Shown: positions 10,825-42,700 of the stretch, in pieces
Layout: every line of letters starts with the position of its first letter
How positions within the stretch are numbered: the stretch's first letter is position 1
Source: Marsupella aquatica
Taxonomy: Eukaryota > Plantae > Marchantiophyta
Assembly (NCBI GenBank): GCA_973895155.1
Contig: OZ316897.1
Coordinates: forward strand, 20,277,224-20,341,223
Direction: 5' to 3'
Length of the DNA stretch: 64,000 nt
Made by a program: the position numbers and the translations under genes
The notes under the pieces: generated by a model
Databases searched by the model: none
Seen by the model: the letters and a program-made list of their open reading frames with translations, nothing else
What the model was told of the DNA's origin: nothing

Positions 10825-11477
10825 AAGCAAAAGTGCACATCCACCCCCACTATCATACAAATAGGCATTTCCAGGGCATTTTCATCCTAGATGCTTTTGT
10901 GATTATTTGAGTGAAGCTTATTAATGATTCATCCATGCAAAACTTACCACCTAAATATTTACTATAATGTTCATTAATCCAAAAGTGCCCAAAAGTTTGA
11001 GGAAATTAAAGCTTACTAAGCTCCCACCACCAGTTGGCCCAAGTCAAATTTGCAACCATCTTAATGGAGGACTTTACTAATAAAATGGGGTGAAGACCTC
11101 CTGCAAATATGAGACTGTTTGAGTCATTGCCCATCAGCCTTCTAGTACATAATGGCATTCAGATTCAGAATCATGTACCAATTCTCAACAATAGATTTAA
11201 CTCTCTCCAAGTGCACACTCCCAGGAAGAAGCATCCGTTGTGTACTAAATGGGGGTTTGCACTACTTGATAAGTGCAAACCTGAAGGATTATGCACTTAT
11301 TCATAAAAGAACATTCTTTGTCAGTGATTAGTCTTGCGACTCACAACCCAAATTGTACATCCCTCCCCTAAATTTGGTGCCCACCCCATAAGTGCAATTT
11401 TTAAGTCTACTAAAAGCAGGCATGCACATATCAGTTAAATGCAATTTATTGGGATTGGGCACTTCCCGATAAGAGTA

Positions 11478-17400: not shown

Positions 17401-18345
17401 TACTCTTAGAGGAGGATGTATCAGTTGGAAATCTACCTTGCAGAAGTGTATATCTCAGTCTACTATAGAAGCAGAGTATGTTGCAGCAGCAAAAGCAGCA
17501 AAGGAAGCAATTTTGTTAGACAAGTTGATCGCGGAGATGGGTTTAGAGCATGGCAAAATGACTCTAAACTGTGATAGTCAGAGTGCTCTTCACTTGGTTG
17601 CTAACCAGGTGATGGATAGCAGGGTGAAGCATATTGATATCAGGTACCATTTTATCAGGCAAACAGTATTTGATAAAACTTTTGAACTAGTCAAGATTGA
17701 TAGAAAGCTCAATCCCGCTGATGCCTTTACCAAAGTGATTCCTTTGGAGAGTTTCTCAAGACACCGTGTTACTTTGCAGGTTTTGTAGTTGTAGTGCAAG
17801 TAGAGTTATCTAGCAATATGTGACTATTTGTATATGGATTACTCATTCCTGTTTGGCTACAGCTTAGTTCTAGTTAACCCTTAGTTAACCCTTGTGGGTT
17901 TTTGGGGGAGACCTGGTTTGGTGATTGTCTAGAACTTCCCGCTGAGGATTCCATATGGTAACATTTAGTCCAGTCCCCAAGACAAGAGTCAAGGGGGAGT
18001 TTGTTAGATATTGCTCTAGTCTTGTGACTCATGAGCTAACCACAGTTAGTATAACTCGGGTTAGGACTTAGCTAATGTTAGCGCTAGTGCTGTTGTGTAT
18101 TAAGCCAGGGCTGATGCCAGACCCTGATGGAACTTAGGCTCATTGTTACGGAGCTAGTTGAGAGATAGGGAGAGCTTGTGTTGTGGATGCTTGGTATGGC
18201 CATTCGGCCTAGAGTGCAGTAAAGCTCTTGTGTGTTCCCGTGGACGTAGCCTCATGTGGAGGTGAACCACGTTTCTCTCTGTGTCGACTCTTGTGTGTTG
18301 GATGGTTCATGAGCTTGCCGTTGCAAATGTCGTTAGTGCTCAACA
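11478..18345 (+). mobile_element. Full-length but decayed Ty1/copia LTR retrotransposon
   Basis: 344-bp TG..CA LTRs at 11478-11821 and 18002-18345. TSD GAGTA on both sides. PBS tggtat(atat)cagagc after the 5' LTR and PPT aagggggag before the 3' LTR. Order gag-PR-INT-RT-RH. Confidence 0.97.
13732..17788 (+). pseudogene. copia gag-pol, disrupted by many stops and frameshifts
   Basis: KFEVEKYDG gag start, CWNCGKPSHMKWDC zinc knuckle, WILDSAC protease, FWAEAV and KGYRLWDP integrase, KARLVAKGF / LYGLKQ / YVDNML RT, KHIDIRYHF RNase H, split over about 10 ORF fragments. Confidence 0.95.
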
Positions 18346-18498
18346 GAGTATATGTGCACTTATCAATTCTTTGCACTTAGAAAGTTGTTGTCACCAAAAA
18401 CACATCTGGGGCGTGTTTGAACTTAAAAAATGTGCAAAGAGTGCAAACTGTGTGTTACAAAATGGATAGAAGTGGAGGCCTTGCATTTAGCTAGGTTT

Positions 18499-18843
18499 TG
18501 TTGAACATAGACGACAATTGAAACGACAAGCCCATGAACCATCCAATGCACAAGAGTCGACACAGAGAGATACGTGGTTCACCTCCACATGAGGCTACAT
18601 CCACGGGAACACACATGAGCTTTACTGCACTCTAGGCCGACCGGCCATACCAAGCATCTACAATGCAAGCTCTCTCTATCTCTCAACTAGCTCCGTAACA
18701 ATGAGCCTAAGTTCCCTCTCTCCAAGCAAACACTGCTTGGTTATAGAGTGTGCACAGTATGATTAACCTAACCAAGTCTGTGACTAAGGTTAGCATTAAC
18801 TACGGTACAGTCGTAACTCTAGACTTAAGAGTAAATCCTAACA
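18499..18843 (-). mobile_element. Solo LTR of a family related to the adjacent copia, in inverted orientation
   Basis: 345 bp with TG..CA ends and GGTTT on both flanks. 18499-18715 is the reverse complement of the 3' part of the 344-bp LTR; the remainder is more diverged. Confidence 0.9.
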
Positions 18844-19485: not shown

Positions 19486-20008
19486 GTCTCGTAAATTGGA
19501 CTGCCTCTATGTCGACATCTGTAAATTTTTCTTCCCTCCCTTTCCTATTTTCTTTCTTCAACCTTGATTAATTTGAATTTCTTGAGTCCCTGCTTTTCTG
19601 TTTTTCCTCCTTGCCAACCCTGTGAGTGGGAGAGGGCCTGTGCGGTTGGCGAGGGATTGTGTAGGACTGGGGAGTTGGGTGCAAGGAGAATAGAAGGCGG
19701 GATAGAAGGGAGAAAGGTGTGTAGGGTGTCTGGGGTTGGCCAGGCACATGGTCACTCAAGGGCAGAGGTGTGGGCAGTCAAATGCTGGCATGGTCTGCAC
19801 ATTGTGGAGAAGCTGGGAGAGGAAGGAGCAGGGACTAAGGGCAGGCAGGGAATTCAAGAGGGAAAACTGTGGTAGTAAAAAATAATTGAGAGGCAGATTC
19901 AATGGTAATGACAGGCTGGAGAGAGAGTCACAAGGGGTCCAAGATAAATAACCACCCATCAACCTATTCATTAAAAGTGTATTTTCTTTTGTTCACAAAT
20001 GAGTCTTG

Positions 20009-20097
20009 AAATGTACACTTTCATGGCCCCAAATGTACACTTCAAGACACCCAAATGTACACTTTTGTGTCTCTAAATGTACACTTTATAGGCCAAA
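20009..20097 (+). repeat. Left subterminal AAATGTACACTT motif cluster
   Basis: Four copies just inside the left TIR. Confidence 0.85.
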
Positions 20098-20339
20098 TCA
20101 CATTAATATTATATTAATAAATAATACATATTATATTATTTAATAACTCACATAGAAATGGAGGATAAAAACTTATAAAGTTATTTCATCCCCATTTAAG
20201 GACCAGATATTCTGTGAACAAAATAACATCATTCCAAATAGATTATAAAATATCTTTATACAATTATCTGCAAATTTACATTGAATACGAACATATTTCT
20301 AGTACTATCCAAGGGGCTTAACACAAGTCAATTAAATAT

Positions 20340-21398
20340 CTAAACCAAGTGCTCCCTACAATGTGTATTTGAGCATGTGCCCCTGTCTCCTTTCCTATCT
20401 ACCCTATTGTCACGGTTGCAACTCCCTTTATTTTCAGGGAGTTGAAATCTGGTGGTGTTGTTCCTAATGGCTATAATCTCCCGCAAAAAGTGTCTGAGAT
20501 TTTCTCTATATGGACCTGAATAGTCCTTTCCTAAAAATGATTTAGCAAGTGAGTTGACAAGTGCATTGTCAAGTTCCACCTCAGGACGTAAACTACATAT
20601 ACGGTGCTTTACATTCCAAGGGATCTCATTACTGTTGAGGTCCAACACACTATGTGTAAACTGTGACTTCCAAATTTTTGCTGCAAATCTCTTGCTAAGT
20701 TGATCATAAGTAATCTCATTTTTTGCCTTGTCTCTCTTCATGTGCAAAAGAGACCACTTTGGAGAGTTGAGAAGAAGATAACATCGAATGTCACTTGCAT
20801 GTGATAGTTTCTCAAGACATGGCCAAAGAATTGCTAGAAGAAAATTATCTCCACGATTGGCATGCATGTAGGGCACTGGAAATAATCCGGTCATGTCTGG
20901 GTTGGCAAATGCCTTAAGGGGGGAGTCATCCACAAGGAGGGTGTTGGTTTCATCATATAGATTTCCAAATGCATTCCATACCACCTGAAAATCCTTTAGT
21001 AGCACATTTGCCTTTCCGTTTGTAATGTCACGCCTTTGAATGCCTGTGTCAAAGGCTTCCACCTGTGTGAATACAAACTTAAGTTTCAACCGCTCCTCAA
21101 CAGTGAACATCATGTTCAGCATTTTCACTGTTCGTTCTACCCCAGCACAAGTCCAAATTGCAACGTCAAATCTGTCAAAAACCAACTTTAGAAACTCATG
21201 GAGCCCTGGTTGTTCTGTATACATGCGACTAATACCATTTTTTCTATCCCAATGCACTCCACTTGAGGTGACAATATTCCTGGATGTGCCCTTGCTTTGG
21301 AATTCAATAGAATCCCAAAGTATTTTATTAAGGTCCAAAATCAGCAACTTCCGCTTGACGGGACCAGGTCTCGATTCTGCAAGTGCACCAAACACCAT
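20340..21398 (-). CDS. FCP1/NIF-family HAD phosphatase-like protein (transposon cargo)
   Basis: KRKLLILDLNKIL (HAD motif I variant), PGLHEFL..FDVAIWT, KDFQVVW and YDETNTLLVDDSPLKAFANP. Open frame; the true start or an upstream exon is uncertain. Confidence 0.8.
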   Translation of the reverse strand: MVFGALAESRPGPVKRKLLILDLNKILWDSIEFQSKGTSRNIVTSSGVHWDRKNGISRMYTEQPGLHEFLKLVFDRFDVAIWTCAGVERTVKMLNMMFTVEERLKLKFVFTQVEAFDTGIQRRDITNGKANVLLKDFQVVWNAFGNLYDETNTLLVDDSPLKAFANPDMTGLFPVPYMHANRGDNFLLAILWPCLEKLSHASDIRCYLLLNSPKWSLLHMKRDKAKNEITYDQLSKRFAAKIWKSQFTHSVLDLNSNEIPWNVKHRICSLRPEVELDNALVNSLAKSFLGKDYSGPYRENLRHFLREIIAIRNNTTRFQLPENKGSCNRDNRVDRKGDRGTCSNTHCREHLV

Positions 21399-21615
21399 TC
21401 TCAGAGAAAAGACCAAAAGTGAACTTTGGATTAGGATTGTCTCAGTCCAAAAATACAACACAATGGCTGACAAAAACGAAAATTAACCTACATACCGTTT
21501 TTAGAAGCCTCACAATGTGTAGACGGATATGGAAACTTTAATTGGTGAGCCCATTCTGTGAGACCGAGAAGTATTTTAGATTGATATGAATAAATAGAAA
21601 GTCAAAGGCTGAATT

Positions 21616-22023
21616 TCATTCCGAAATAAGAGATCCGTATTCATCAATAATCATGTCAACACCAAGCTCCTGTTGGATTTCAAAATTGACATCTGAAGTA
21701 CTTTGTTCTACCCAATAAGGAGAAGTCCAAACAGGAGTTATGAACCCCAATTCTCCCCTCTTATACTCCTCCTTATTGAGAATTGAAGGAGCAGCTTCCA
21801 ATGATATTTCTTGGCCTCGATTTGGCCCACTTTTCCACACGTAACATCGTGCGTCGCGTTCCAATGACCTCCATCCAGTTGATCCAACTCTATTCCCTTT
21901 ATTTTTTGAGAACGGAAGGACAACAGGACTCCTCGAGTGTGAACGAACGAACACCAATTTGTCATCAGAAGCTGAAAAGAGTGTGTCAGGACAAGTTGAA
22001 GCACCTGCTGTAATGCTGTACAT
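21616..22023 (-). CDS. Possible exon or small ORF of unknown function inside the transposon
   Basis: 135-aa open frame preceded by a plausible short intron (donor near 22089, ctaac branch site and cag acceptors near 22006-22017). No recognisable domain. Confidence 0.3.
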   Translation of the reverse strand: MYSITAGASTCPDTLFSASDDKLVFVRSHSRSPVVLPFSKNKGNRVGSTGWRSLERDARCYVWKSGPNRGQEISLEAAPSILNKEEYKRGELGFITPVWTSPYWVEQSTSDVNFEIQQELGVDMIIDEYGSLISE

Positions 22024-22489
22024 TAGTTAGAAATGATGGAAATTTTATAAATTTTAAACTTTTTCTAACTCAAGGTACAATCTAGTTACCTTTTGTAGCA
22101 ATTTAGATCAACTGAACACTTAACCTAATGTTATGCTTCATCGGAGGCTATTGTATTGGACAAGGATCGCCAATATAAATCCTTGCTCTTTACATGCTAC
22201 CAAGAAAGAAGGCTGGACATCATTGGAGAAGCAATGCAGACTAGAAGATTCAAGAACTGGCCTCCAAAACACTTCTTCAACAAGAATGAGCTCTGTATAC
22301 AATTATCACAATCAGCCGATCTATGCTATTTTAGTTAAATAGCTATCATGGTCAGAAAAGTCTCATACTTTTTCAGGAGGTAGTAGTTGCGTAGTAGAAT
22401 CATCCCTGCAAATTTCATCTCAAACCGACATGTGGTTTGAAAGTTAGAATTAATTTAGTTTTGCTGTTTTTCGCATAGCCGCGACTTCG

Positions 22490-23170
22490 CCGACGCTTTG
22501 TGAAGCGTCCCTTGTATTCTTTGGACGCTTTGAAAAGCGTCCACCCAAAGACCACGACGCTTTCTGAAGCGTCCACCACCCAACCAGTTGTACTCCGACG
22601 CTCTGCAATCCACATGAGGAGCGACGCCCACAGAAGCGTCTGCTACCCCGAAGGCGACATCGACACTGCGACGCCCACAGAAACGTCTGCTACCTCGAAG
22701 GTGACCTCGACACTGTGACGCCCACTGAAGCGTCCCGCCCGGAGCCCAGAAAATGGATGCTGCGACCAAAACCTTAAAATTCAGCCGACGCTTTCTGAAG
22801 CGTCCACAAAAGTCCTTTGTAGTTTTGGACGCTTTCTGAAGCGTCCACAAAAGTCCTTTGTAGTTTTGGACGCTTTCTGAAGCGTCCACTATGTTCTCGA
22901 CACTTAGAAAAATTTTCAGTTTTCGCATTTTTATAACACCGCGCCACTTTTACCGATTTATTTGAGACACTTAGAGATCTCAGAAAAGTCTGAAACTTTA
23001 CCAGCATAGAGACTATATGTAGTAGAGTATCCTAGAAAAGTTTCAACTCATTCCGACTCTTAGTTTAGAAGTCAAAATTAGATTAAAATCATTATTTATT
23101 AGTTTTACCGCAAACACTGACGCTTTGCAAAGCGTCCGCTCAAACCTCGACGCTTTGAGAAGCGTCCCCT
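22490..23170. repeat. Cluster of GACGCTT-N4-AAGCGTC palindromes, including 41-bp tandem units
   Basis: Copies near 22492, 22524, 22556, 22787, 22828, 22869, 23119 and 23149. Confidence 0.85.
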
Positions 23171-26100
23171 GCATTTTCGACACTTTCAGCAGTATCCATT
23201 CACTTTTCAAGGATGACCGTCATTAAATTTATTCAAGACCCTTTAGATATGAAAGGGCAATCCATGTCCTTTCAGTATCTCAGTCTCCTTGGGTTCCTGC
23301 TAGCCTATATGAAGTAGAATTTGTGTCATTTTCAAGTGTGAAGAAATAAAGTAGTGCCTGTGGCATGTGCTGCAGTACTGTAATCACCTTTGCAAAGCTT
23401 CCGTGTATTTTCGTATGGTATGGAGCTTGCAAATACAAAGGAATTCTTCTCCCTTCCTTGGTCTGAATGATTGAGAGTTTAGATCATTGAAGTAAAATTA
23501 CTTGTATAAAGTTGAATCTCAGAAGTATGAGGGAATAGATTCCTTAAGTGGTGACAACCCATCTTCTTGAGTTCTTAATGCATAGTTTTTGGCGTGACAT
23601 TGCTTGTGCATGGGATGCAAAGATTGTTACTCACCAATTACCTGTGACTTCAATTTGATCATGATGGTGTTTATTATTCGTGACTCAGAGTACCGACTGG
23701 ATATCGAAGTGATTGATTACTAGTTTCTTCTGAGTACCTTTGGAAGGAAAGGTTGAGACGTGTTGACGGCATTTTAGTAATCATCCTAGTACAGTAATCC
23801 ATTCCAAAAATGTTCTTACGGATATACCACCCAAATCACATCAAATGAAGTATTGATGAGAAGTTACCTTGGTGTTTTCCAGACTCCCTTATCATACCTC
23901 AAGATTTCATTGTGTTTTGTTATTTGTTTCCATTTTATTAATTGCATTTACAATGTTAAGCAAACATTCAAATCTATGCCTTGCTGAGCAATCATAGTAA
24001 AAGGCTCAAACCTGTGTTTTTGTTACCTTAGTCATTCATAAATGTTAAATGATAGAAAATCATTTCTTTCTTGTTCTTCCATGGGATCGAATACCGAGTT
24101 TTGGACATTAAATGCTGATTTATGTCTTTAGTACAATACTACACCTGCCTGGTTGTCAGCAGCCGTTGATGCATTTCCTTCTGGATTGATGGGAATGTCA
24201 GGCAATCCGTCGGCTTCCCCACGAGTCAATTTGTTAGTTTCAGCTTCATTTGAATCTCCAAGCCTCGTTGCGCCTTCGTTGATCAGATTGGTTGAAGAAA
24301 GATGATCAAACATATCAACCCTTGCTCCTTCCAGTTGCTCCATCTGTCCTCCCGGCGTTGTTGGATTGGGATCATCCTTGTCCAAGTTATCATCAACTTG
24401 AACTTCATTGGGCCCCGGAGGGATGTCATCTAAACCAGATGAACGGTTTGGTGCAAGTCCAATATCATCATCTACATCGTAAGGCTCACCTTGACCAACA
24501 CGGTCATCCAAATTCTTGACATATGCCTCCTCTGATGCCTCTACGCCTTTAGCCACTTTGTCAGCAACATCATCAGACTCAGAACCGTCGGATTCAACAG
24601 CGACAGCTACAGCCGCAATAGTGGTAGCCCATTGTCGAGAATTTTCAGCAAGTGATTCACAATGGGCTTTAAGTGAGGGAACTCTCTCGCAAAGGTAGGA
24701 AGCAAAAGCTTCCACAAAATGCCTCTCGGACTGAGAGTCACAATAAACAAAGCATTCCCTATCGCAAAAAAATGATGTCTTCATGACTTGGCCACCGGAG
24801 AAAAAATCTAGAACCAAATCTCCCGGTTCTGATAAGGATTCAATAATCCTTCGGATCATCCGCGTGGGTTTGGCATGAGGATTAACCCATCCTCCGCGAC
24901 TACCAACTGTCTCAAATCGAGGGGCCATATTCATAATCTTGACGGCCTCTTCCGGGTCCAAAACCACTTTTAGGTTGTCGTTTTGTGTCCCCTCATCTGA
25001 TTCCTTAGCTTTCCCCTTTCCCTTGTCGATCTTGCATACTTCATAATCAACATCCTTTGAAGTATACAAGAATTTTGGCTTTGGATAGTTGGGCTTGAAA
25101 ACTTCATTCCAATTGACGTCTTCATCTCGAGAAATCCCTGCAAAGATAACTTCTTCAATCCCTCCACCCCAACATGAGTCATGAGGGTGCGGTTGATCAT
25201 CTCGGGAATAACTCCCATACTCAATGTGAATGGTCAAAGCTTTCTCTTGTCCCAATTTACGAAGGGCACCATGGACATTCAGTGCAAGTTGTCCAGGATG
25301 AACTGTTATCGTCACCACAATCGTGGGATTTTGTGGAAGCTCCACAATGTATTCAAAGAGAACAAGAATCTTTGCTTCAGTCCACTGTTTTTGCGGAAGC
25401 CGGCTAAAATCAACAATGGCAAGAGGGCAGGTCGGAGGAGCTTCTTGCAATGACTCTGGATCAATGGTCTTCATGAGATTGTCGCTAAAAAATGTAACCC
25501 ATGGTAGGGTCCGAGAACGTGATCCTCCGCCAAATCTCTGGCAGTATATATCATCTAGGCGGAATACCAATGTCGTCGGCAAGATTGCGCTCTCCCGCGT
25601 ATGATTTGGCTTTAAAAGGTTGGCAAGATAGACCTCGCCAGCGGCTCTTCGACACCTGCTGAACTCTGAATCAATTGCTAGCGTAGGAAGAACCTCAACT
25701 ACTTTCCCCCAATTAGTATTTGTCGGGAAATTCACCGCATCCTTGGTGCAATAGTAGTCTTCAATAAGGGACTTGAGTTTCCGCACGATCTTCACATCTT
25801 TGGCCAACTCCTCTATAGATGGCATGTCTGATTTATTAGAGGCATCTTTCTTTAGCAATACCTTTCCTGACTTCACCCGCGTCAGTATTCTTGTGATGTC
25901 TCGTTGTGAGATCAACTCACCATCAAAACAACGAAACATGGCAACAGTAATTGCTTTTTCAGACTTCTCATTTCCTTCTACACCAGCTCCATCGGGAAGT
26001 TTCCCATCCAACCACAATTGGCATACCAAACTCCATAAATCAAAAAGAGCATTGTCGACAAACAGTAACCAGTAGACATTACGACAATCTTTCCTTCCCA

Positions 26101-26192
26101 TGGTCATTCTTGCAAGAGCCAACCAATCCTACAATTGCAAAGGAAAGTCTGTTAGTTCTCCATAACTCAATTGTTTGAAAGCACTCAGGTGC

Positions 26193-26535
26193 GGACTGAG
26201 ACCATCCCAGTCCAACACAGAACTAGACAGTATCAGTGGAAATATTATATTGAATGTGCATGATTTAGTTTGGACTAGGACCATCCCAATCCAAAACAAA
26301 ACTAGACGGTATCAGTGGAGAAATATTCTACTGAATGTGCATGAATCCATTTGGACTGGGACCATCCCAGTCCAACACAAAACTAGACAATATCAGTGGA
26401 AATAGTCTATTGAATGTGCATGAATCCATTTGGACTGGGACCATCCCAGTCCAACACAAAACTAGACGATATCAGTGGAAATATTCTACTGAATGTGAAT
26501 GTATCCATTTGGACTCGGACCATCTCAATCCAAAG
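26193..26535. repeat. Five 79-81-bp tandem units, each containing the palindrome GGACTGGGA-CCA-TCCCAGTCC (intron 2 of the ParB-MTase gene)
   Basis: Palindrome starts at 26193, 26272, 26353, 26432 and 26511. Confidence 0.9.
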
Positions 26536-28414
26536 CAAACTTGAAGCTTTGTGGTCAAAGACTACCATCTCAATTGTAATCACACATGGAGAGTCTACGG
26601 TATTGTACCAATCAAGCAGTAACACTTCGTACCTAAATTTTTTGATTGTCTTGAGCGTTTGTTTTGTTGTCCCCATGTTTTGGCCGGCTAGGTTTTCCAC
26701 ATTCCACAAATTGCCGCCTAGCATGAACGACTGTATCTTTGAAGCATGACTGAAACACCATCGTGCTATTGATAGCATTAGATCGCATTGAATGCTCAAC
26801 TAATATTGACGATGGTGTTCGATGAGATAATATTCTTGACTTTCGAAATTCCAGCTTTTTTGCCAATGCTGTTAGCTTGGCATCCTTGTTTGCCCATTCT
26901 CGAATCCATCTGGCTGCTCTGGCCGAATGTTGACCGCTAATGGCAAGGAATTGAACCTCCCCCTTTTTCACGGCTGCTACAAAGTCCCTCCTATCTGATT
27001 CCGTGTTGTCATATTGCATTAGGTTTCTATGTTTTGTAGTGTAAGGAATCAAGTCTGCTATGTGTGGTTCATGCCCCGGATTTCTTATCATGGAATTGGC
27101 CACCTCCTTTACATGGTCTGCATTCAACATTCTGTAACAGAGTCTTGCCGACGCAGGGAAAATACTCTCTACGGGAATAGAAAATATCGAATTGATCCCA
27201 AACGTATAATATTGCTCCATTTGTTGCAGTACCTCATTACCTTCTAAGACCTTCTTCTCCTCAGGAGCGTCCAACTGCTCGTCCATATCTTGTGAATGCA
27301 CTGTCAGGTTTTCTGTAGTGTCATCCATGATGGCACTGTCAATTTTCTATTTCTTCTTTTGTCTTGGCCTCTTTTCACTTGCACTTGGCTTCTCAACCGG
27401 ACGTTTCTTCTCAACTGGCTTCTCAACTTGGCTTCTCGTACTCGGGTTCTCAACTGGCTTCTGAACTCGGCTTCTCGTACTCGGCTTCTCGTACTCGGCT
27501 TCTCGTACTCGGCTTCTCAACCGGCTTCTCAACTGGAAGTTTCTTTTCAACCGGAGGTTTCCTTTGGCTTTGTTTTTGTTTTCCCACTGCTCTTTGAGAG
27601 GTTGCTGCTGTAGTTCCCGCGGTCTCTGTTGTAGGTTCTGGAGCTTTCTCTGGCGCCTTCTCGGGCACAGGGTTTGTATTCACCGTTGGAAGGTTTCTCG
27701 TCTTTGACAAAGATTCTATCCATTGCTTTGCTTTGACTAAATCAAAGTTGGGATCAAATGCAACATCCTTATCAATTAAAACACCAGGCTCCTCTGACTC
27801 CAACGATAACAATCCAACTTTCTCAAGTAAATTGCTTAACGTCCAAGTAGTTTCAAAAGAGAAATTGCCTTGGTGCTTCATCATGTTGAGTTTCAAATAT
27901 TGAAACCCATACATAATGTCGACTGGAAGCATACCAGTTACCCCGATGACCAACTTCTTTGTGTCATATGTCTTTGGAAAAAATCCCATTGACAAAACGC
28001 TCAATTCACCACTTGCGTGCCATTCGACATTGAATTCTGAGGAGTATGCCTTTGACATAAGGTTAACTTTAACCCAGCATGACCTATCGTGCATCTCCAG
28101 AATGACTGAATTCATCCCTCTCCCTCCAATGCCAACAGAGACCACAGGTCCGCAAACCAAAGTCAGGCTATCATTTGCTCTGCACTTTAAGGTCAAAACA
28201 GGTTCAATCATGCTTGATGGCACTTCATTATTAAGCGGGGTTCTTGAGAACTCAAGCCCCCATCGGAAGCCTGGGGATCTCTCATCTAGTAAGAATCCGT
28301 CCCGGCAGTCGGTCGGTGCAATCGCGGGTTTGAAACCAACAAGATCGCTCCCTGCATCATAAAAACGCCATCCATGTTAGACTTATTAAGTTTAAAACAT
28401 TTGAATAACTCTTG

Positions 28415-28755
28415 TTGGATTAGGATGGTCCTAGTCCAACTTGAGATGGTTTTAGACTTGCTCCTACAATCGAGATTCAATCTCCTGGATGGATTAGGAT
28501 CATCCGAGTCCAAGTTTGGATTGGGATCATCCGAGTCCACGTTTGAATTAGGATCATCTGAGTCCAAGTTCGGATTGGGATCATCCGAGTCCAACTTTGG
28601 ACTGGGATCATCCGAGTCCAACTTTGGATTGGGATCATCCGAGTCCATGTTTGGATTAGGATCATCTGAGTCCAAGTTTGGATTGGGATGGTCCGAGTCC
28701 AAGTTTGGATTGGGATCATCCGAGTCCAACTTTGGACTCGGATGGTCCCAGTCCT
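28415..28755. repeat. 27-bp tandem array of the same palindrome (intron 1 of the ParB-MTase gene)
   Basis: About 10 units of ggattgggatcatccgagtccaa(g/c)ttt at 28491-28755, plus a degenerate copy near 28417. Confidence 0.92.
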
Positions 28756-29984
28756 CTAAGACTTAGGGAGGATAGGTGATGGATACTTACTAGGGATTCT
28801 TGATTGAAATTGTCTGGAGTCTTCAAGTGCCAGTTCTACACTGTCGCTCATAGAGGAGAGGTCAAACTCCTCTGTTGCTTCCACGGAGGACTTCACAAGG
28901 ACGCGATTCGCTTCCATCTTTCTGACACGTGGCAGAGTGACACGTGGCTTCTTAGCAGGCGTCCGATTTAGGGCAATGAAAAAGAATGGAGGTGGAGGCG
29001 GAAGCAGGCGGAGGCGGGGAGGCGGAGAGAGAGCGGAGAGCAAAGAGCGAGGAGAGCGAGCGAGTGGAGGCAAAGAGCAGAGAGCGGAGGCGGAGAGTGG
29101 AGAGCATGAGCAGAGTGAGGAGCGAAAGAGTGAGAATGAGAATGAGGTCCTGGCTGGACCTCTCCGTCCCTTTACCCCCTCCTGCCTCACCCCGGCCTGC
29201 GTACGGCCGGTTGCCTCCTTCTCCTACGTACGGCCTGATAGTGCGTACGGCCTGCTCCTGCGTACGGCCCGTTGCCCGCACCCTGCATACGGGCCTCCTT
29301 CCTTGATGTCCTGCCTACCTAACAGCCTTGCACGGTAGTCCCCGCGCAATTATGCTCGTGAAGATAAGGTGTGCCGCAAGCTAAGGTGAAGGGGTACTCA
29401 ACCCTTATCTTCACGCGATTTTTGTTTGAGCCGACTCGAGCAAAGGGTATATTTCGGGAGACACCCACTTCGGAGCTCATTCTTGTTCTAGTTTCCCAAA
29501 TCTAAGCTCCATGTAATCCGGAGTTTCTCTTAACTTTAGTGTTATATATTGAGCCACTTACCTTCAATGGGTCAGCTTAGCCAGCTTCTTGACTTTTGGG
29601 GTCCTCTCAGTTTATCTTTTACAGACATGTGTGGTTTAGGGTTCAATTTGTTTTTTACTCCCAAGATTTAGTGGCATATAGCTTGTATTTCAGGGTTCTG
29701 GGAAAGTTTTTACCAATCTACAGACAACAATGTATCCCCCTTGGATGTGATATTCATATTCTACCAGATCTTAATACTAAGGTGAGTATAAGGTTAATGC
29801 ATTCAAATATAAGGCTAGGTTTCATTATTTCATGAAACTGTATGTAGACATTAGGGTCTACCTTAAGACCACGCAAACTTTAGGCTACACCATATAGGGA
29901 GATCCGTAAAATACGGAGTCTTCCTAAATTTGGAATTTTCTTAGCTTAAAATGTTTGAAGTTTATCTCCCGTTACATTATGGGT

Positions 29985-30780
29985 TGGTCTAGGATGGTCC
30001 TAGTCCAAGTTTGGATTCGGATGTGGACTAGGATCATCCGAGTCCAACTTTGGATTGGGATCATCCGAGTCCAACTTTGGATTGGGATCATCCGAGTCCA
30101 ACTTTGCATTGGGATCATCCGAGTCCAACTTTGGATTGGGATGGTCTGAGTCCAAGTTTAAACTTGGATGGTCCAAGTCCTAGTTTGGATTGGGATGGTC
30201 CGAGTCCAAGTTTGGACTTGGATGGTCCAAGTCCTAGTTTGGATTGGGATGGTCCGAGTCCAAGTTTGGATTAGGATGGTTCAAGTCCAACTTTGGATTG
30301 GGATGGTCCGAGTCCAAGTTTGGACTTGGATGGTCCAAGTCCTAGTTTGGATTGGGATGGTCCGAGTCCAACTTTGGATTGGGATGGTCCGAGTCCTAGT
30401 TTGGATTGGGATGGTCCTAGTCCAACTTTGGACTGGGATGGTCCCAGTCCAAATCCAGACTCGGATGGTCCCAGTCCAAATCCAGAATCGGAGGATCGTA
30501 CTCCAAATCCAGACTCGGAGGATTCCAGTCCAAATCCGGACTCAGATGGTCCCAGTCCAAATCCATAATCAGAGGATCGTAGTCCAAATCTAGACTCGGA
30601 GGATTGCAGTCCAAATCCGGACTTGGATGGTCCCGGTCAAAATCCGGACTCGGATGGTCCTAGTCCAAATCCAGAATCAGAGGATCGTAGTCCAAATCCG
30701 GACTTGGATGGTCCCGGTCCAAATCCGGAATTGAAGGATCGTAGTCCAAATCCAGACTTTCAGGATCGCAGTCTGAATCA
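29985..30780. repeat. 27-bp tandem array of the same palindrome (predicted 5' intron of the transposase gene)
   Basis: Roughly 28 units, changing from ggattgggatcatccgagtccaacttt to agactcggatggtcccagtccaaatcc along the array. Lies between donor gtgagt (29782) and acceptor tgcag (30825). Confidence 0.92.
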
Positions 30781-30840
30781 AAATTTGCATGACTTTGGTT
30801 TTAATCCATTTTTTTCAGTGTGCAGGATAATAGGAAAAGG

Positions 30841-33800
30841 ATGTCTCAAAGGTTTTCTAGGGGCGATGATGTGACCTTGACAATGGATGGTTACGACGTT
30901 GGAAATGGGACAGTTCAAAAGACAGATCCGCAAGAGAGTGTTCAAAATATTGTGCTTGGAGAGAATCGAATTGGGGTTCTCATTGAGAAGGCCTTTGGTG
31001 AGACCAGGAAGCTCCCTTTTCCAATGCCTAGGGCGGAAAATCTTCATGATGCCATTGACTCATGTGTCATTTGGGATATGTCATGTGCATATCGATCTGC
31101 AGATAAGATTACTCAAAAACGCATCAGTATTGGTAGTTGTTCGACTCGAAAAGATAACAACATCCATAATTCTGCAAATGTACAGGAGGATGCTTCGACC
31201 ACCCTAAGGCCAGGTGATGAGGTTGAAATGTTTATCTCTGGCCATTGTGTGGCCTTTGGAGTTGTTTTCAAGACTGATCCAATGGAGAGATGTCATAACA
31301 TATTACTCGGTGAGTCTCGGGTTAGTGTAAAAATCACAGATGTGATTCATGGTAGTAAGACTTTACCTTACGCACATGGTGGAGCTGCAACAATTGAAGA
31401 GGCAAAGGGCTCCTGGGTTCTATGGGATGTGGCTGACGTCCACAATAAAGTATGGAATGTTGATATCGATGGGAGCAACAAATCTTCCTCTAAGAAGCAG
31501 AAGGACAAGGCGGATTTTGTTTCACAGTCTTGTTCGGCAAACACCACAGACACTAAGTGTGACTATTTTCATCGGGCAAACTGGATGTCAGAGTTGGTTG
31601 AACTCTACACTGGTTTGGATCGAACCAAAATGGTTGCCACGGGAACGATCACTGTCCCTCAAGTGACGGCAGCAGTTGATGATGAAATTCTTGGTGATGA
31701 CCATGTTGGGATTGCTGTGAAAGATGTCGTGGCAGCACAATACTTTCCCAACATCCACAAGGGAGTAGTGAGTTTGATTCGATGGCGGATTGATTCAACA
31801 AAACTAGTTACAAATGGAAAATTTTTGTCAGACATTTTGGTGGAAGGTTCTGAAAGGATGGACTCAATGGATAGGGATGAACTCAATGCGGATGTAAGTG
31901 ATAGAGGAGTACTGCGTTCAAGGCCCTACAATTTTAACAAGAGGAATCAAGTAGATCCAAATGAAAAGAAGAGGAGGTTGTTGGAAACCAAGGCAATTTC
32001 AAAAACAACAGAGGCGTCAATTGATGACGTGAAAAGAGAAAATTGTTGCAAGCAAAAATGTTGTCTCATTATGCCAAGGGAAAACATCGAAGATATTAGG
32101 ATGGAATTTCATGGGATGTCAAGCGAGTCAAAAACGTCACACATTTTCAACCTCTTTCACTATAGAGAGGATGATGTTCGTGATAAGGGACACCATGTTC
32201 TTAAGGGTATGGTCGTATGCAGACATGCATTTGCAATTATCCACGGTTTTAGCCACACCAAATATTATGATTACAAAAGGAGATATGTGGAGGGTTGCAA
32301 AATTGGGTTCCATGGCAATACGGGCTTGATGAAAACAAGGGCAAATACCTTGCATGCACGAGCTCTGTTGGAGGTTTTTTTGACTCGAAATGCAGAGCCC
32401 ATGCCTCATATGCCTTATGGAGGGGCACATGGGACAGACTCTATTGAGTACCGTCTTCCGGCGTGTTACAAAAAGCTAGAGATTCTGGAAGATGTGAGAA
32501 CAAAGATGAAGGAAGAAGGGCTTCCTCCTGTCACAGAGATACTCTCTACAAGATCTGGAGTAACTCATTTGCAAACTTCAGTTTTCATAAAGATGGTGCA
32601 TTTGCCAAGTGTACTCTTTGTTGTGAATACAAAGACAGTTTGATGCGAGAAAGAAGGAAAAAAGAACGTGCTGAAATTGAAGAAAAACGAGCGCAACATC
32701 TTCGTGAGCAAATGTCACGTAGATATGTTTACTACGCTCATCGAGTGATGGCCAAACAACACCCAGGAGAATATCTTTGCATTATTCACGACAAGATGGA
32801 TCAAGCAAAGACATGGATTCCAAAAATGGTTAGTACTCCTAAATCTCTTTCGGGTCATGGAATGCCGCTACCTATTGCTCTCACAGGGATGTTGACCCAC
32901 GGGAGGGATCCAGGAGTTTATGCACACTTTAGTGTCACTGGCCTTTGGCCAGGAGATGCCGATTTCACGGTGACATCCTTGGCTAAGTGTCTTCGAGACC
33001 TTGAAGAGTACAATGGAGACAAGACAGGTGACATGTTGGATGGCCTTCATTGGGAACCTCACAGACCTTTCTTTCAAGCCCTACTTGACTTTGAAGCATT
33101 TTTGACGGGTTATTTGGAACCAAAGAATATACCGGTGAATAGGTATATTGGTTCTGAAGATGGAGCTGAGAGTCGGACTGAGACCGTCCCAAACCAGCAA
33201 GATGAGGATGATGGAGAAGACATGCAAGGAGAGCAAGGCAGTCCATCGTTCAAGCCCTTGCCAAGGCACCTAACATTGCAGATGGATAATTCAGCAAAGG
33301 ACAACAAAAACCAGACTGTCATGGCATTTTGTAGCGAGCTTGTGAGTAGAGGAGTATTTGAAACTGTTCAAATGTCTTTTCTAATGGTTGGTCATACGCA
33401 TGAAGATGTTGATGCACTCTTTTCAAAGGTATCATATCAAGTTCAGCACAAAGAAGTTGCAACCCTCCTTGCTCTTATGGCAGAGGTATGGGAATGCGAG
33501 AGCATTCATCCAGTTCCCAGATTGATACAAGAAGTTGCATCTTACAAAGAATATCTTCAAACTTTCAAGGTGAAAGATATTCAAGGTCACTCAAAACCTG
33601 TATCATTTCTTTTCTCTATGAGAGATAATGTACCAATATTTCAGTATAAGTCCCATGTAAAGCAAGCTTGGGCTCCAATTGGTGGAAGGTGCATTTGGGC
33701 AACAGATCTGACAACAAATTCTCTTCTTTTACCAAGTGGAGAGCCCTTAGCTAAATCCATTGGAGAGATACACAAAAAATCTGAAGAGATTATCCCATTT

Positions 33801-34601
33801 CTTAACAAGTACCTTGATTTTTTGAGAAGGAGTTGCACTGATGAGACATCTATAGCATATAAGGAAAGATTTCCTCTTGTGAAATATTGGGAGAGAATTG
33901 TGGAGTTGTTGACAAATGGGCTCGCACTAGAAGGGGAGGGAAGTACTCAATTTCCCTTGGAAAACAGATTTTGGCCTAAGACTAACCACGGCACTGGTTA
34001 CAAGGTCAACCAACCGGAACAAAGTGGTCCTCCAAGTGAAGATGAGGAGAATGCAGAGATGACGGCTCTTCAAAATGAGGTCTTGGAAGAGATGGAAGAT
34101 CAAGCAGCACCATTTGTTGGATCTCGAGTTGAGAGAGAACAAGGACGATGGATTCCTTTACAAGATATTTGTGAAGGAAACTTTGTATTTCTTCGACCCG
34201 AGGATGACTGGGAGAATAAAAATGGTGGAGGTCATTTCTGGTTGGTGAGAGCTTTGGGTTTGGTGGACCCAAAGCATGAAGTCCCAACTACATCTTCAAC
34301 AAACCCTTCTCTGCCTCGATAGTACGCTCCAATGTTCCCAGTTGAATGGTGGAGGCCTAAACACTCTAGTAAACTTGATGTGACTGAGAGTGCGCGGTAT
34401 CTAAATTGTTTCATGTCCACTAAGACATGGGAACGAGATCCAGGGTTTGGTGAGAATACTCAACATTGGCAGTATGCAAATTCTGCAATGTATGGTTTTA
34501 AATCTGGAATGAAAGAAGAAAATATGGCGGGCAGAGGTTTGAAGATCCCTCGAAATGTTCTACAAACTGTCCAAAATTATCTTCAAAGGATGGACAAGTA
34601 G
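30841..34601 (+). pseudogene. Transposase with three Tnp1/En-Spm-like N-terminal repeats, a Cys-rich region, a DDD-type (DUF7869/Sola-like) core and a C-terminal aromatic SH3/BAH-like module; disrupted
   Basis: Core motifs IIHDKMDQ, LQMDNSAKDNKN and FLMVGHTHEDVDALFS; also CCKQKC and FAKCTLC. ORFs 30820-32643 and 32463-34322 join by a 1-nt shift at cttcctcctgtcac (about 32528). An in-frame TAG at 34320-22 separates the last part. Confidence 0.85.
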
Positions 34602-34854
34602 ACTTAGTTGTTAGAAGCTATAATAATTAAATAGATAGTTTACTAGTTTTTATGTAACTAAGATAGTCACTCATTCAAACATAGTAATTTATGTACTAGT
34701 TATTTACTATTCTAATAGTTTTAATGTGATACTATCTCCTCATTTTCTAAACTTTTGATCATTATAAATATGAATGTTTGCTTTTTCTACATAATTAAAA
34801 ATGTTTTTCTATTCATTCCTTTCTTTTAAATGATTATAATAAGAGTTGGTAGGC

Positions 34855-35220
34855 AAATGTACACTTTTTAGGCCAAATGTACACTTTATTGCACTAAAAG
34901 TTACACTTTCTAGACCAAATGCACTTAAATGTACACTTGTTAAGCCAAATGTATGCATTTTGCACTCAAATGTACACTTGTTAAGCCAAATGTATGCATT
35001 TTGCACTCAAATGTACACTTTCTAGGCCAAATGTACTCAAATGTACACTTTTAAAGCCAAATGTATCTATTTTGATGTTCAAATTTACACTTTTCATTGC
35101 CCAAATGTACACTCTTTAGGCCAATTGTAAACTTTTCTATCCCCAAATGTACACTTTTCATTGGCCAAATGTACACTTTTCCAAGCCCAAAAGTACACTT
35201 TTCACTGCCCAAATGTACAT
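34855..35220 (+). repeat. Right subterminal (CC)AAATGTACACTT motif cluster
   Basis: More than a dozen exact or degenerate copies just inside the right TIR. Confidence 0.9.
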
Positions 35221-35958
35221 AAATCAAATAATAATACACTTTTAATGAATAGGCTGATACCCCCATACATGCAAGTTGGCAACCAACAACCCAAACAGAC
35301 TGCCTGGCCTCTTAAATGGCCCCTTGTGCCCCCTTTGCTCGAGGGAGAAAATTCCACCACACAACAACCAGCCCAAAACAGATTGTATGACCTCCTCATA
35401 AACAAAGGCTGTCTCCACCCTCCAATTTTTTAAAACATTAAACGAGGTGAAATCCCTTAAAAGAGGGGGAAAATGTTTACTTCTTTCTTTGTTGCATGCC
35501 TTAAGAATTAACTAAGAAAACACTCTCCTTGGCTCCTCCTAATCGTCCATCAGTGTCATACTCATTGTGTCTTACCTGGTACCTAGTGTAGGACTTGCAC
35601 TATCTTCCTGTCCCAGATGTAGATTTAGTCATACCAGATGTACCCAGGATATCAATTGCACTCCCTAGAAGTATTCTTACACACTAGCTCAATACCCGTG
35701 CGTTGGACAAAGATACCGTGAAACAAAGATGTCGTGTTGCCCAAGATGTCGTTAAGGAAAAAGATGTCATTAAGAGCAGAGATGTTGTGTTGCCCAAAAA
35801 ATGATGCAAACCTTTATTATATGAGTTAATGTTGTCAAATGTGGTTGTCCCTTTATATATGTATCCCTAAACCCTATCACACCAGCCAAGATTAGTTTGA
35901 CCCCCAACCCCTTCAGTTGTTATCTCATCCAGATATATATTTAATTTTTCCAAGTATA

Positions 35959-38900
35959 TGTGAGAATATGAATGAGAATGAGTCATGTATAGTCCGTGGC
36001 GGTTGGTACATATAATGGTGCCGGTCCGGTGACTGGCTGATCCGGTCGTCCGGTCACCAGATAGAGTTTAACACTCCCTTTTGGATATATAGTGACAACT
36101 ATATAGACAATATAAACTATACCTATTATATCATGTTCATAGGGAATACATGATATAAGTACAGGCGAGGTAGACTGCCTCGTTAAAAAACCTTTATCAA
36201 CTCTAGCTTAGTAAAAACTCTACCAGTGTAGCAGAGAAAAAATATGAGTGCTAAAGGAAAAAGAGTGTAGCCTAACAGTCCTCGTTGTTATAAATGTCAA
36301 TATTAAATAAAGTTAGATGCTATAGTAAATCTAGTTTTAACATCTGTCTTATCAGTGGGTTGTCGGCATTGTGTCATCAGCAGCATCAATCGTCATGTGG
36401 AGTAGCAGCTTCCACGGTCATCATGCGTTGCATGCTCCGTAGTCCAATCGCCTGGCAGTATCGGTGATGAACTGATGGTGATAGTGATTTGGTGAAGAGA
36501 TCCGCACAGTTGTCTGCACTTGAAATCTGCAGAATGTTGATCTCTTTTCCATGTAACTCGTGGGTGTAGAAAAACTTCGGAGCTATATGCTTCACGTGGT
36601 CGCCTTTGATGAATCCTTTCGTGATCTATTGTATACATGCTGCGTTATCCTCAAAAATGTTAGTAGGCTTCGTTAGTGGTGGTAGGCCGCATTTGGTGTT
36701 GATGTGATTTATAAAGGATCGTAACCAAACGGCTTCACGACTAGCCTCATGTAGAGCTAAAATCTCTGAGTGATTCGATGAGGTTGCTGTTAGGGTCAGT
36801 TTCACGCTTTTCCAAGAAAAAGCGATACCCCCTATGGTAAAGACATATCCAGTCTGAGATTTTGCGGTATCAGTGTCGGAGAGATATCCGGCGTCCGCAT
36901 ATCCTATGAGCTCGTGGTTTGCACCGAATGGGTAAAATAGCCCGGTATCGGTGGTTCCACGTAGATATCTAAATACGTGCTTAACTCCATTCCAGTGTCT
37001 GGCTATGGGAGTTGCACTATGTCTGGCTAGTAAGTTAACGGCAAATGCAATGTCTGGCCTGGTTTGATTTGCTAGGTACATTAATGCTCCTATTGCAGAA
37101 AGATACGGGGTTTCTGGTCCTAGTAGTGGTTCATGTTCTTCGCACTTGCAAAAAACATCAGTGTTGTTTTCTAATGAACGTACAACCATTGGTGACGTCA
37201 ATGGGTGTGCTAGGTTCATATTGAACTGTTTTAGGATCTTTTCAGTTTGTGTTGTCTGATGGAGCATCATGCCAGTGGGTAGGATCTCTAGTTGTAATCC
37301 TAAGCAAAAGTTTGTATGTCCAAGGTCTTTCATCTCAAATGTTGATTTAAGACTAGTAATAGTATCTTCTGTAATTTGGGGTGTCCCAAATATATTTAAG
37401 TCATCAACATAAATAGAAATGATGACATATTCATCATCCACATGTTTAATAAATAAACATGGTGTACTGGCATCATGGGAAAAACCCATGGCAATCATTT
37501 CATCAGTAAATCTTTGATACCATACTCTGCCACTTTGTTTCAGGCCATACAATGCCTTCAACACGCGGATAGCTGGTCCACGGCGAGTATTCCGTACGGT
37601 TGACACAACGGTGTCGTTATTATGAGTTACATGTGTAGATGACACATGAGGTGTAACTTGAGATAATTGTGTTATAATCTTATGTAAGTATGAGATATGC
37701 GATTTAGCGCCTTGAGCTAAGCCTCGGCGTCGTTGCTCCAACTCGGGAGGTGATTGCATGTATAGACAAGTGTCTAATGTTCCATATAGATATGCAGTTG
37801 CAACATCCAATTGTCGCATCTGTAATTGATGGAAAATGGCAAATCCGATAAGGTATCTGAATGTTGTGCTATCCATAACCGGTGAATAGGTTTCATCGTA
37901 ATGAATTCCCGGTTGTTGTGTAAATCCTTTCCCTACCAGACGTGCTTTGTAGCGTACAACTTGGCCTTTATCATTTCTTTCGCGGACGAATGTCCACTTG
38001 TAGCCAATGAGATGATTGTACGTCTTGCAGTGTTGGCTCGACTGGGCCAAAAGTGTGTCTGCTTAGTAGGGAATCTAATTCTCCGTTTATAGCTTTTTGC
38101 CATTCAGGCCAATCTGGTCTGTTTTGACATTCTAAGATAGATATTGGTTTGGGTGTCTCGTTAGTGATATGTGTTGCCACCATTAATGCAAAAGCATCAT
38201 CTATTGAAGTAGTATTTCTATCCCACATCGTACCGGTGTGTGCGTAGTGGATAGAGATCTCTTCATGAGTTGTGGATTCGGTATGATCGACATCAGGTGA
38301 AGGTGGTAGAGATGAACCACGCCTTCTTGGTTGTTTATCCTTTGATCCCAAGGGTCTGCCACGTTTGGTACGAGGCTGGGATGTATTTGCTGGCTCACTT
38401 GATAATTCGATGCGAGCAGATGCTCTCGCAGCTGGAATATGTGAGCGGGTAATTTGTGATGTATCGACAAAAGCGTTTGGAAGTTCTTCCACAATCTTGT
38501 GGAGTTGCAAAATTCACTGAACTTCTTTCTCCCCTTGATTGGTTCCAAGGTCTTGCCAAAATGGCGAATGTCTTTCCCACTCCAAAGGTGGTTGTGGTTG
38601 TGGGGTTATTAATGGTGGATAAACATGTTCATCAAAATGGCAATCTAGGAATCTGGATTTAAAAACGTCGCCAGTTGTTGGCTCCATATATCAGATTATG
38701 GACGGAGAGTCAATTCCGATGTATATCCCCAACTATCATTGGGGTCCCATCTTGGTTCGTTTGGGTGGAGTAATGGGGACCATTACTTGACATCCAAATG
38801 AACGAAGATGTGATAGGTCAGGTTTGATACCATTAGCAATTTGGTATGGGCTATAGGTATTAAAAGCCGATGGGCGGTATTGAATTAATGCATTAGCCTG

Positions 38901-41900: not shown

Positions 41901-42700
41901 TCACTTTTGCATCGATCTGGCTACCCTACAGGTTTGCAATTCCCAGAAAATTTGAGTCTATTCTGCTTCTTGCTTCCAGGCTGATCTTCCGTGCGACATC
42001 GGGCATTCGCGCCCCCTATCTCCTCCGATTTTTGGGATTTCTTAGACTGCAAGAGATCCGATTACGATTTCCTATCTCCTTCTCTCTTTGATAATTTGAG
42101 TTTGCTGAGGGGTATCGCTGCTTCTTCTTTCTATTGCGGGCTTCCTTCTTTTCGATGTCTCTTCTTTGCATAAAAGAAATCTAATCTCAAGTGAATTCTG
42201 CGAGCGTTTCTCCTTCTACGGCCTCAAGACCATCCTGGCGCTCTTCCTGCTAGATCATTGCACATTTGTCAGGTTTTTGCCTAGCTCGTGCGCCTCTTCA
42301 TCGTGGTGTCCTTAGCCAATCCTGTTCAATTTTTGGGGTCTCCTCAATTTTCGAAAGTTCTTATGGCCTCCTCATTGTCTTTTCTTCCCTCTGTCCTTAT
42401 CTTCTCTTTTGCTATTCAATTTTTCCTCTCAATCTCCTTAGCCCTTGCTCAAGTAAAAATGAGACGTGCATACTCCAGTGCCAATCACGCTGTATCCATT
42501 CGGCATAAAAAAAATTTCACAATCTTCCATGGTCTGTTCTCTCCTTTCTTCTTGGCTCCGCTGGTAAGTCCTCGTGCTGATAACGTGTGAGAATATGAAT
42601 GAGAATGAGTCATGTATAGTCTGTGGCGGTTGGTACATATAGTGGTGCCGGTCCGGTGACTGGCTGATCCGGTCGTCCGGTCACCAGGTAGAGTCTAACA
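35959..42700 (-). mobile_element. Ty1/copia LTR retrotransposon, Bianca-like, decayed
   Basis: 115-bp TG..CA LTRs at 35959-36073 and 42586-42700 (4 differences). TSD GTATA on both sides. PBS cgttatcagcacgag and PPT aaaagggag on the minus strand. Gag begins MTNLEKLTFPALDIDGSNYLEW. Confidence 0.95.
36386..41045 (-). pseudogene. Bianca-like copia gag-pol with stops and frameshifts
   Basis: CHTCGMTNHLARNC knuckle, IIDSATTHTIL protease, WHARLGHPG / HADVCGP / LRVDNAGEF integrase, LYGLKQSG / YVDDL RT, KHIAPKFF / ADLFTK RNase H. Confidence 0.95.

Follow-up and report, generated by a model that had tools for sequence, protein, structure and literature searches.

The locus and its element

A 64,000-nucleotide stretch of the genome of the liverwort Marsupella aquatica (GenBank assembly GCA_973895155.1, contig OZ316897.1, positions 20,277,224 to 20,341,223 of the forward strand), referred to here as the window, contains a large DNA transposon at positions 19958..35258. 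The element spans ~15.3 kb, including a nested insert, and carries between its ends a transposase of the Pfam family DUF7869, a divergent accessory gene encoding ParB-like and methyltransferase-like domains, and a HAD phosphatase-like open reading frame (ORF). It is a real but dead copy of a recently amplified family of giant transposons.

The boundaries are defined by 26-bp terminal inverted repeats (TIRs) at 19958..19983 (plus strand) and 35233..35258 (minus strand), which are identical at 25 of 26 positions; in shuffled 200-bp end regions (n = 10), the best match of this type reached only 15 to 17 of 26. Directly outside each TIR stands ACCC (19954..19957 and 35259..35262, plus strand), likely a 4-bp target site duplication (TSD) as observed at this single copy, and the longest repeat flanking the element is 4 bp. 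The ends read ATCA[A/G]CC or, alternatively, CA[A/G]CC. Internal to the TIRs are two arrays with a 22-bp period, one on the left (20009..20087, plus strand) with four copies of the motif AAATGTACAC and one on the right (34850..35220, plus strand) in the same orientation. The motif has 13 exact copies, 4 left and 9 right, all on the plus strand and within 420 bp of the ends. With one mismatch allowed, the window holds 20 matches against 4.6 expected, and 17 of the 20 are in the two ends. The motif has a palindromic core, TGTACA, and is oriented alike rather than inverted at the two ends. The first-pass annotation, made from the sequence alone, had proposed 26-bp TIRs with one mismatch, ACCC flanks, and clusters of subterminal motifs, all of which were borne out.

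Evidence that the element is repeated comes from public sequencing runs. Parts of the window occur in 14 runs from 7 studies, and the four runs that contain half or more of its words were compared. No RNA run was among the 14, a result that carries no information on expression. In X1, the left-flank contig (18814-19987) matches the window without differences at a depth of 11.3 and ends 30 bases inside the element, at 19987, as expected for a branch point in a 31-letter graph if further copies start at 19958. Six interior contigs of at least 99% identity, five from the accessory gene and one from the transposase, have depths of 364 to 455, or 32 to 40 times the flank (all depths being those of single contigs), so the accessory gene and the transposase have been amplified together. 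We read these depths as tens of near-identical copies of the element; X1 may come from the very source of the window. Together with the ends, the high-depth contigs support the earlier proposal of a repeated TIR element flanked by a 4-bp duplication.

The DUF7869 transposase

The transposase gene (30841..34601, plus strand, ~1,250 codons) encodes repeated N-terminal beta-type units, a CxxC motif, a D...D...GHTHEDVD core, and a conserved C-terminal domain. Its core, DNSAKDNKN...GHTHEDVD, matches Pfam DUF7869 (E 5e-44), which confirms the transposase that had been placed inside the TIRs from its motifs. In this copy, what was a single gene is interrupted twice, by a frameshift near 32538 and by a stop at 34320-34322, as evidenced by the 1,300-amino-acid relative P0154, which aligns along the whole transposase at 40% identity before and 58% after the frameshift and continues through the stop at 34320. 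Contigs of other copies insert one base at 32538 or 32540, the site of the frameshift. The ratio of observed to expected CpG is 0.48 in the transposase, 0.35 in the phosphatase, and 0.70 in a flanking nucleotide-binding leucine-rich repeat gene; the low values within the element, along with stops at CAG codons, would fit past cytosine methylation by the host.

A homology search with the transposase gave 187 matches, and the named ones among the 120 listed are from liverworts (Calypogeia fissa and Riccia sorocarpa); a C. fissa relative, among the matches listed, covers 61% of the query at 68% identity. An unrooted tree of 37 catalytic cores, built from DUF7869 relatives alone, places the window enzyme with Calypogeia in a group of 25 rows (support 100/99); two metagenome sequences discussed below, L006 and L055, lie outside this group on long branches. 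Profiles of the transposase, of its C-terminal domain, and of the ParB-like region of the accessory protein found no relative of solved structure. DUF7869 is likely a Sola1-type transposase family. DUF7869 transposases of 1,445 to 1,518 amino acids at two metagenome loci (L063:220-4773 and L058:1018-5352) have an N terminus that looks SET-like by eye, although DUF7869 is their sole Pfam match.

The search results also bear on the other transposon classes to which the element could belong. Its ends can be read as CA...TG around a 2-bp AT duplication, an option raised in the first-pass annotation that would make it CACTA/EnSpm-like. The subterminal arrays, the large size, and the two divergent genes are reminiscent of the EnSpm elements of algae that have 2-bp TSDs, and red algal elements are cited as carriers of ParB-methyltransferase genes (PMC12477816). 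Yet Transposase_21, Transposase_23, and Transposase_24, the domains marking CMC in PMC5751038, gave no match in the Pfam search at E 0.1 or E 5, and the element has neither a CACT/CACAG-type terminus nor the CAC-type termini with a 2- to 3-bp TSD of CACTA/EnSpm elements. Moreover, the ACCC/ACCC pair would be left to chance (about 1 in 256), and the X1 flank contig implies that the first base, 19958, is common to other copies. We therefore disfavor the CA...TG reading and consider a CACTA-like identity very improbable. A KDZ element is characterized by a KDZ transposase and an 8-bp TSD (the length is from the supplement of PMC12477816); neither is present, and in the Pfam search of the transposase, DUF7869 alone was matched, with no KDZ transposase.

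The divergent accessory gene

Opposite to the transposase, a gene of ~1,350 codons runs on the minus strand from ~28330 to 21616 and carries a frameshift and two stops in this copy. Its first exon (26633..28330, start codon approximate) encodes an N-terminal domain of unknown family, a Lys/Glu-rich linker, and a ParB-like domain with the motif AISGQHS. The frameshift lies between ~27645 and ~27463, and the stops are at 27347-27349 and 26633-26635. Five relatives span the N-terminal domain and the ParB-like domain as a single protein, indicating that this copy is frameshifted between the two, and in the four runs the stops at 27349 and 26635 are missing from every contig that covers them. A GT-AG intron (26129..26632), whose junction is crossed by the Calypogeia gene model P0128, holds a 79-bp tandem array bearing palindromic sites. 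The second exon (24144..26128) encodes a helical domain, a beta-class amino-methyltransferase fold with DFSR at the motif IV position and DFFSGGQV as motif I, and an acidic low-complexity linker. Beyond the nested insert, the C-terminal part (21616..22008) encodes a conserved domain of ~130 codons, which had no Pfam match and was found by tblastn of the relatives P0127 to P0130 (E 7e-20 to 3e-14).

In homology searches, the methyltransferase exon and the ParB-like part each gave six matches, all over most of the query at 30 to 62% identity. Among these 12 matches, the only named source is Calypogeia fissa, and no named host gene appears. The divergent gene that had been read from the sequence is indeed present, and it has a Pfam match to N6_N4_Mtase (E 1.9e-6) that covers only 29 residues.

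Relatives in metagenomes

A metagenome scan using the transposase alignment confirmed at least 522 of 598 stretches, from which the best 80 loci, in 65 distinct groups, were kept. An intact transposase ORF of at least 500 amino acids is present in 18 of the 80 loci; 2 of these 18 have more than 2 kb of upstream sequence, and both (L006 and L055) carry a ParB-like gene joined to a beta-class methyltransferase. At L006, a divergent 853-amino-acid ORF contains IDGLHR followed by a methyltransferase part (phrog_67, E 1.4e-6) with DIPK at the motif IV position. The L055 gene lies upstream on the same strand as the transposase, contains an intron, and encodes IDGGHR, an N6_N4_Mtase match (E 1.5e-7), DLPF at motif IV, and a SET match just below the cut-off. 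phrog_67 is the best phage family for the accessory proteins of the window, L006, and L055 alike, and when phage sequences were searched by tblastn with the L006 protein, the matches, most of them to DNA methylases, did not go beyond E 0.2 to 0.7. The profile of the ParB-like domain had no matches in metagenome contigs, and the TIR 19-mer, the transposase profile, and the L055 protein had none in viral contigs. When 31 loci out of the 80 were scanned for TIRs and TSDs, none had a TIR pair flanked by a duplication of at least 4 bp (the threshold for 14 loci, against 3 bp for the other 17); the majority of these contigs are decayed or stop within the element. As further observations, a Cys/His-rich finger without a Pfam match lies at the C terminus of the L006 accessory protein (L006:1564-1800, minus strand), and L055:271-5743, with its near-canonical DLPF and C-terminal SET-like region, is a candidate active version joining DNA and histone methylation.

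These relatives are pertinent to whether the extra genes are passengers, that is, genes of the host or other elements that became enclosed by the TIRs through Pack-type capture, with no role in transposition. Many related transposase loci have no visible cargo, and the Calypogeia relatives do not have adjacent accession numbers. The phosphatase family includes cellular members. On the other side, the full-length accessory gene encodes domains of bacterial type and found no named host gene in its 12 matches; it has been amplified with the transposase; and the pairing recurs in L006, in L055, and in Ectocarpus (PMC12477816). We consider passenger status highly improbable, and the accessory gene is very probably a standing part of the element rather than a captured host gene. 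The first-pass annotation had suggested that the accessory genes (DNA marking, a phosphatase, and a possible chromatin reader) support transposition or counter silencing. The ParB-like/methyltransferase-like gene is indeed amplified with the transposase and conserved in liverwort-type relatives, but DNA marking is doubtful because the catalytic motif is altered, as described next.

A methyltransferase fold with an altered catalytic motif

The predicted model of the 490-residue accessory core (predicted local distance difference test [pLDDT] 68; predicted template modeling score 0.56) resembles beta-class amino-methyltransferases, including MboIIA, CcrM, RsrI, HpyAVI, PvuII, and the rotifer N4CMT; a Foldseek search with the model gave MboIIA at E 5e-6, and the highest structural Z score, 15.4, is to CcrM, with a root mean square deviation of 3.6 over 192 residues. 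The protein shares with M.CcrM, M.MboIIA, M.RsrI, M.PvuII, and N4CMT the fold and the motif order IV...I, and it has the S-adenosylmethionine (SAM)-binding motif I, DFFSGGQV, which is unchanged in 7/7 family sequences. It differs from these enzymes in being fused to a ParB-like domain, in being transposon borne, and in having D-[FL]-x-R in place of D/S-P-P-Y. All seven family sequences show this replacement at the inferred position (DFSR, DFGR, DFTR, or DLAR), so that none has the [DNS]-P-P-[YFW] motif of active beta-class N4/N6 enzymes. Canonical catalytic motifs are given in PMC8885841, which also describes a loss of activity in rotifer N4CMT upon substitution of the S and Y in SPPY. Because the motif is needed for N4CMT activity, the bryophyte methyltransferase domains, judged from their sequences and the predicted fold, are likely inactive or unusual, with SAM binding likely kept.

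Alternatively, the accessory protein might be an active, if noncanonical, methyltransferase placing 6mA/4mC on the element that encodes it, as has been suggested for the algal versions (PMC12477816). The whole beta-class fold is kept, the motif IV Asp and all of motif I are invariant across sequences of 30 to 48% identity, the L055 relative has DLPF, which is near DPPY, and a liverwort is known to use a bacterial-type 4mC enzyme (10.1101/2021.02.12.428880). However, in all seven sequences the catalytic motif has lost its aromatic residue and its two prolines, and inactive domains have a precedent in DIRS1 elements (PMC4738411). We regard an active enzyme as unlikely, if worth keeping in mind.

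The ParB-like domain can be assigned to ParB only softly. The family has an invariant ISGQHS in this domain, and its Atlas look-alikes are DUF3723 (0.95) and ParB_N (0.91); the window and L006 domains share a common Atlas neighbor description (179 amino acids, 162 members, DUF3723 31%). The suggestion that the element encodes a chromatin reader fared poorly, since the C-terminal domain of one relative matches BAH at E 0.052, well short of the cut-off.

Palindromic arrays, phosphatase, and nested insert

The element contains 35 sites (with up to 3 mismatches) of a 25-bp palindrome, TTGGAYTRGGA-N3-TCCYARTCCAA; the window has none outside the element, and none would be expected. Besides those in the intron, the sites lie mostly in two arrays of 27-bp period that flank the shared promoter region, one beside the start of the divergent gene (28415..28756) and a larger one just upstream of the transposase (29984..30773). 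Family-specific palindrome arrays also occur just upstream of transposases at L001:633-1588, L004:7419-8084, and L055:5873-6200.

A NIF/FCP1-like HAD phosphatase ORF (20340..21395, minus strand) has an open frame of ~351 amino acids from the first ATG. It matches Pfam NIF above the cut-off (E 5.9e-14), in agreement with the earlier call of a HAD phosphatase-like ORF, and HAD-IIID below the family cut-off (E 2.1e-14). Its first motif is LDLNK, in which only the first Asp of the Asp-based motif is retained; the protein is a predicted phosphatase. Members of the NIF/FCP1 family dephosphorylate substrates like the RNA polymerase II C-terminal domain (CTD). In a single group of metagenome loci (L007 to L009, three in all), the region upstream of a decayed transposase holds NIF-like remnants on the opposite strand. 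At L007:2480-5380, as at L008 and L009, these are three tandem remnants with arrays of the palindrome GGTGGCCACC between and beyond them. Other neighbors of DUF7869 transposases are a divergent 507-amino-acid ORF without a Pfam match (L042:164-1684, minus strand) and a Ulp1-type peptidase (L062:2-679).

The C-terminal part of the accessory gene is separated from the second exon by a nested insert of 2,135 bp (22009..24143) with TG...CA ends and a 5-bp duplication, CCTGC, on both sides. Insert-free contigs from X1 (three) and X3 (seven) join 24142 to sequence at 21989-22001; contigs crossing the site in this way indicate a later, solo-long terminal repeat (LTR)-like insertion into a parent element of 13,161 bp. 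The duplication, the TG...CA ends, and the insert-free contigs led us to drop the idea that 22009-24143 is an ordinary intron. Read on the minus strand, the insert with its duplication (22004-24148) starts with GT and ends with AG at CAG|GT sites and could splice out as an intron. It also holds GACGCTT palindromic repeats at 22492-23166.

Comparison with known elements

The closest described counterpart is Sola1-1_Ec32 of the brown alga Ectocarpus, a 21.5-kb element with a 4-bp TSD that encodes a transposase and, on the opposite strand, a ParB-like/N4-N6 methyltransferase gene; its best match is the moss transposase Sola1-1_PPa, and the same source cites the design for green and red algae as well and describes nested insertions and pseudogenized transposases in giant elements (PMC12477816). 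The two-gene design was therefore already known, contrary to the earlier impression of an unrecognized gene combination. Compared by description only, the window element and Sola1-1_Ec32 are both giant TIR elements with a 4-bp TSD (a likely one in the window element), termini starting with A, and a transposase paired with an opposite-strand gene that carries an amino-methyltransferase domain. The algal element has a 282-bp imperfect TIR, AACCG termini, and a 1,104-amino-acid accessory protein, whereas the window element measures ~13.2 kb without its insert and has a 26-bp TIR, ATCA termini, a ~1,350-amino-acid accessory protein with extra N- and C-terminal domains, a changed catalytic motif, and an added phosphatase. 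The literature searched, with Iyer 2011 and Petroll 2025 outside its coverage, held no report of this design in a land plant; the accessible text of PMC4738411 names no DNA transposon of this kind, and PMC6431247 makes no mention of Sola or ParB. New here are the land-plant example, the altered catalytic motif, the added phosphatase, and the candidate binding arrays.

The window element shares with the Sola1 superfamily its TIRs (25/26), a likely 4-bp TSD, and an occurrence in bryophytes, as Sola1 is listed for Physcomitrella (PMC9033089). It differs from insect Sola1 elements, which are under 3 kb and have one ORF and an AWWT target (PMC3845634), in its ACCC target and its two accessory genes. 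Sola1 membership is likely but indirect, by the design shared with Sola1-1_Ec32. The Sola lead of the first-pass annotation is a good one, as a Sola1 element of matching two-gene design and with a 4-bp TSD has been published. The AWWT preference does not hold, but the listing for Sola1-1_Ec32 itself gives no more than a bias toward ending in A (PMC12477816), and so AWWT may not define all Sola1 elements.

Other systems offer partial parallels. PMC4738411 derives some eukaryotic amino-methyltransferases from ParB-terminase loci of phages and reports that DIRS1 elements contain inactive ones. Marchantia DN4MT1 is related to the accessory protein by analogy only. Fungal Starships likewise carry conserved accessory genes, including DUF3723, in large mobile elements, and DUF3723 clusters are among the nearest Atlas look-alikes (0.95) of the ParB-like domains of the window and L006; unlike the window element, Starships use a tyrosine recombinase (PMC9156397). 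As the window protein has no Pfam DUF3723 match, the Starship link is a lead only.

A working model and its weaknesses

On balance, we think it probable that this is a repeated TIR transposon of ~13 kb, present in the window as a decayed copy, likely of Sola1 type and likely of bryophytes, whose family has its own accessory gene, the product of which would bind the element's DNA rather than methylate it. The DUF7869 enzyme would very probably bind the TIRs and the 22-bp subterminal arrays, excise the element, and create the 4-bp duplication. More tentatively, and by analogy with ParB/parS, the ParB-like domain might load on the 25-bp arrays around the shared promoter, where the SAM-binding, probably inactive methyltransferase domain could coat or read DNA and thereby set expression of the divergent genes or block host silencing by 5-methylcytosine; we give this somewhat less than an even chance. 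It is doubtful, albeit conceivable, that the phosphatase tunes transcription of the element. More speculative still is the idea that giant Sola1-like transposons of bryophytes carry a ParB/parS-like self-recognition system, in which a clamp on their own arrays would deliver a pseudo-enzyme, plus a CTD-type phosphatase, to shield the promoter; the pairing would then be as old as the DUF7869 family and could have been a route of bacterial-type N4/N6 methyltransferases into liverworts.

Several observations weigh against the model. The TSD rests on one copy, given that neither an empty target site nor a second copy with both ends was seen among the contigs of the four runs (15 of 190 joints listed); a self-comparison of the window likewise had no match across the element junction that would mark a paralogous empty site. 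In X3, a contig that matches the right junction exactly begins at 35233, which suggests that another copy also continues into ACCC; ACCC may therefore be favored as a target, or the locus may have been duplicated. Furthermore, ACCC departs from the AWWT (AWWT/AWDT) hallmark of Sola1 (PMC3845634). For the accessory protein, DFSR was placed at motif IV by strand order in the model and by alignments rather than by residue-level superposition, the model of the ParB-like domain is of low confidence (pLDDT 39.6), and Pfam and PDB profile searches of the ParB-like region did not match ParB.

The pairing of genes has exceptions too. L004, with 8.6 kb upstream, and long decayed loci show no accessory gene, and the accession numbers of the Calypogeia transposase and accessory relatives are 59 and 225 apart and thus not adjacent (cluster members only). 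The window accessory protein shows only weak direct homology to its L006 and L055 counterparts (hhalign E 0.0015 to 0.77), and leave-one-out profiles gave no link among the three, such that common descent of the three genes is not established. Finally, palindrome arrays precede related transposases that have no visible accessory gene (L001, L004, and L007), and the palindromes may therefore be transposase sites; the N-terminal repeats of the transposase are an equal candidate for the binder of these arrays.

The idea that transposons bind and mark their own DNA through ParB-methyltransferase proteins has so far been a one-paragraph proposal from algal genomes (PMC12477816). A recently amplified bryophyte family makes it testable, with Marchantia and Physcomitrium as workable models, the 25-bp palindromes as candidate binding sites, and the altered catalytic motif as a natural contrast to the near-canonical DLPF of L055. 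The comparison also connects DUF3723, an unexplained gene of Starships, with the ParB-like domain and places the unnamed Pfam family DUF7869 as likely Sola1 type.

Genomic surroundings

Two copies of a gene combining an alpha/beta-hydrolase, NB-ARC, and leucine-rich repeats (LRR) lie ~42 kb apart in the window (2596-8854 and 45043-51092) and are 92 to 95% identical over the LRR/NB-ARC part. This architecture is of the bryophyte type and, taken with the liverwort relatives of the element's genes, would point to a liverwort or moss host. Between them lie the transposon and two Copia-type elements, at 11473-18345 and 35959-42700, with LTR pairs that are ~96% identical. An inverted LTR fragment is located at 18498-18718, and a gene of glycoside hydrolase family 15 has exons at 56253-59385 on the minus strand.

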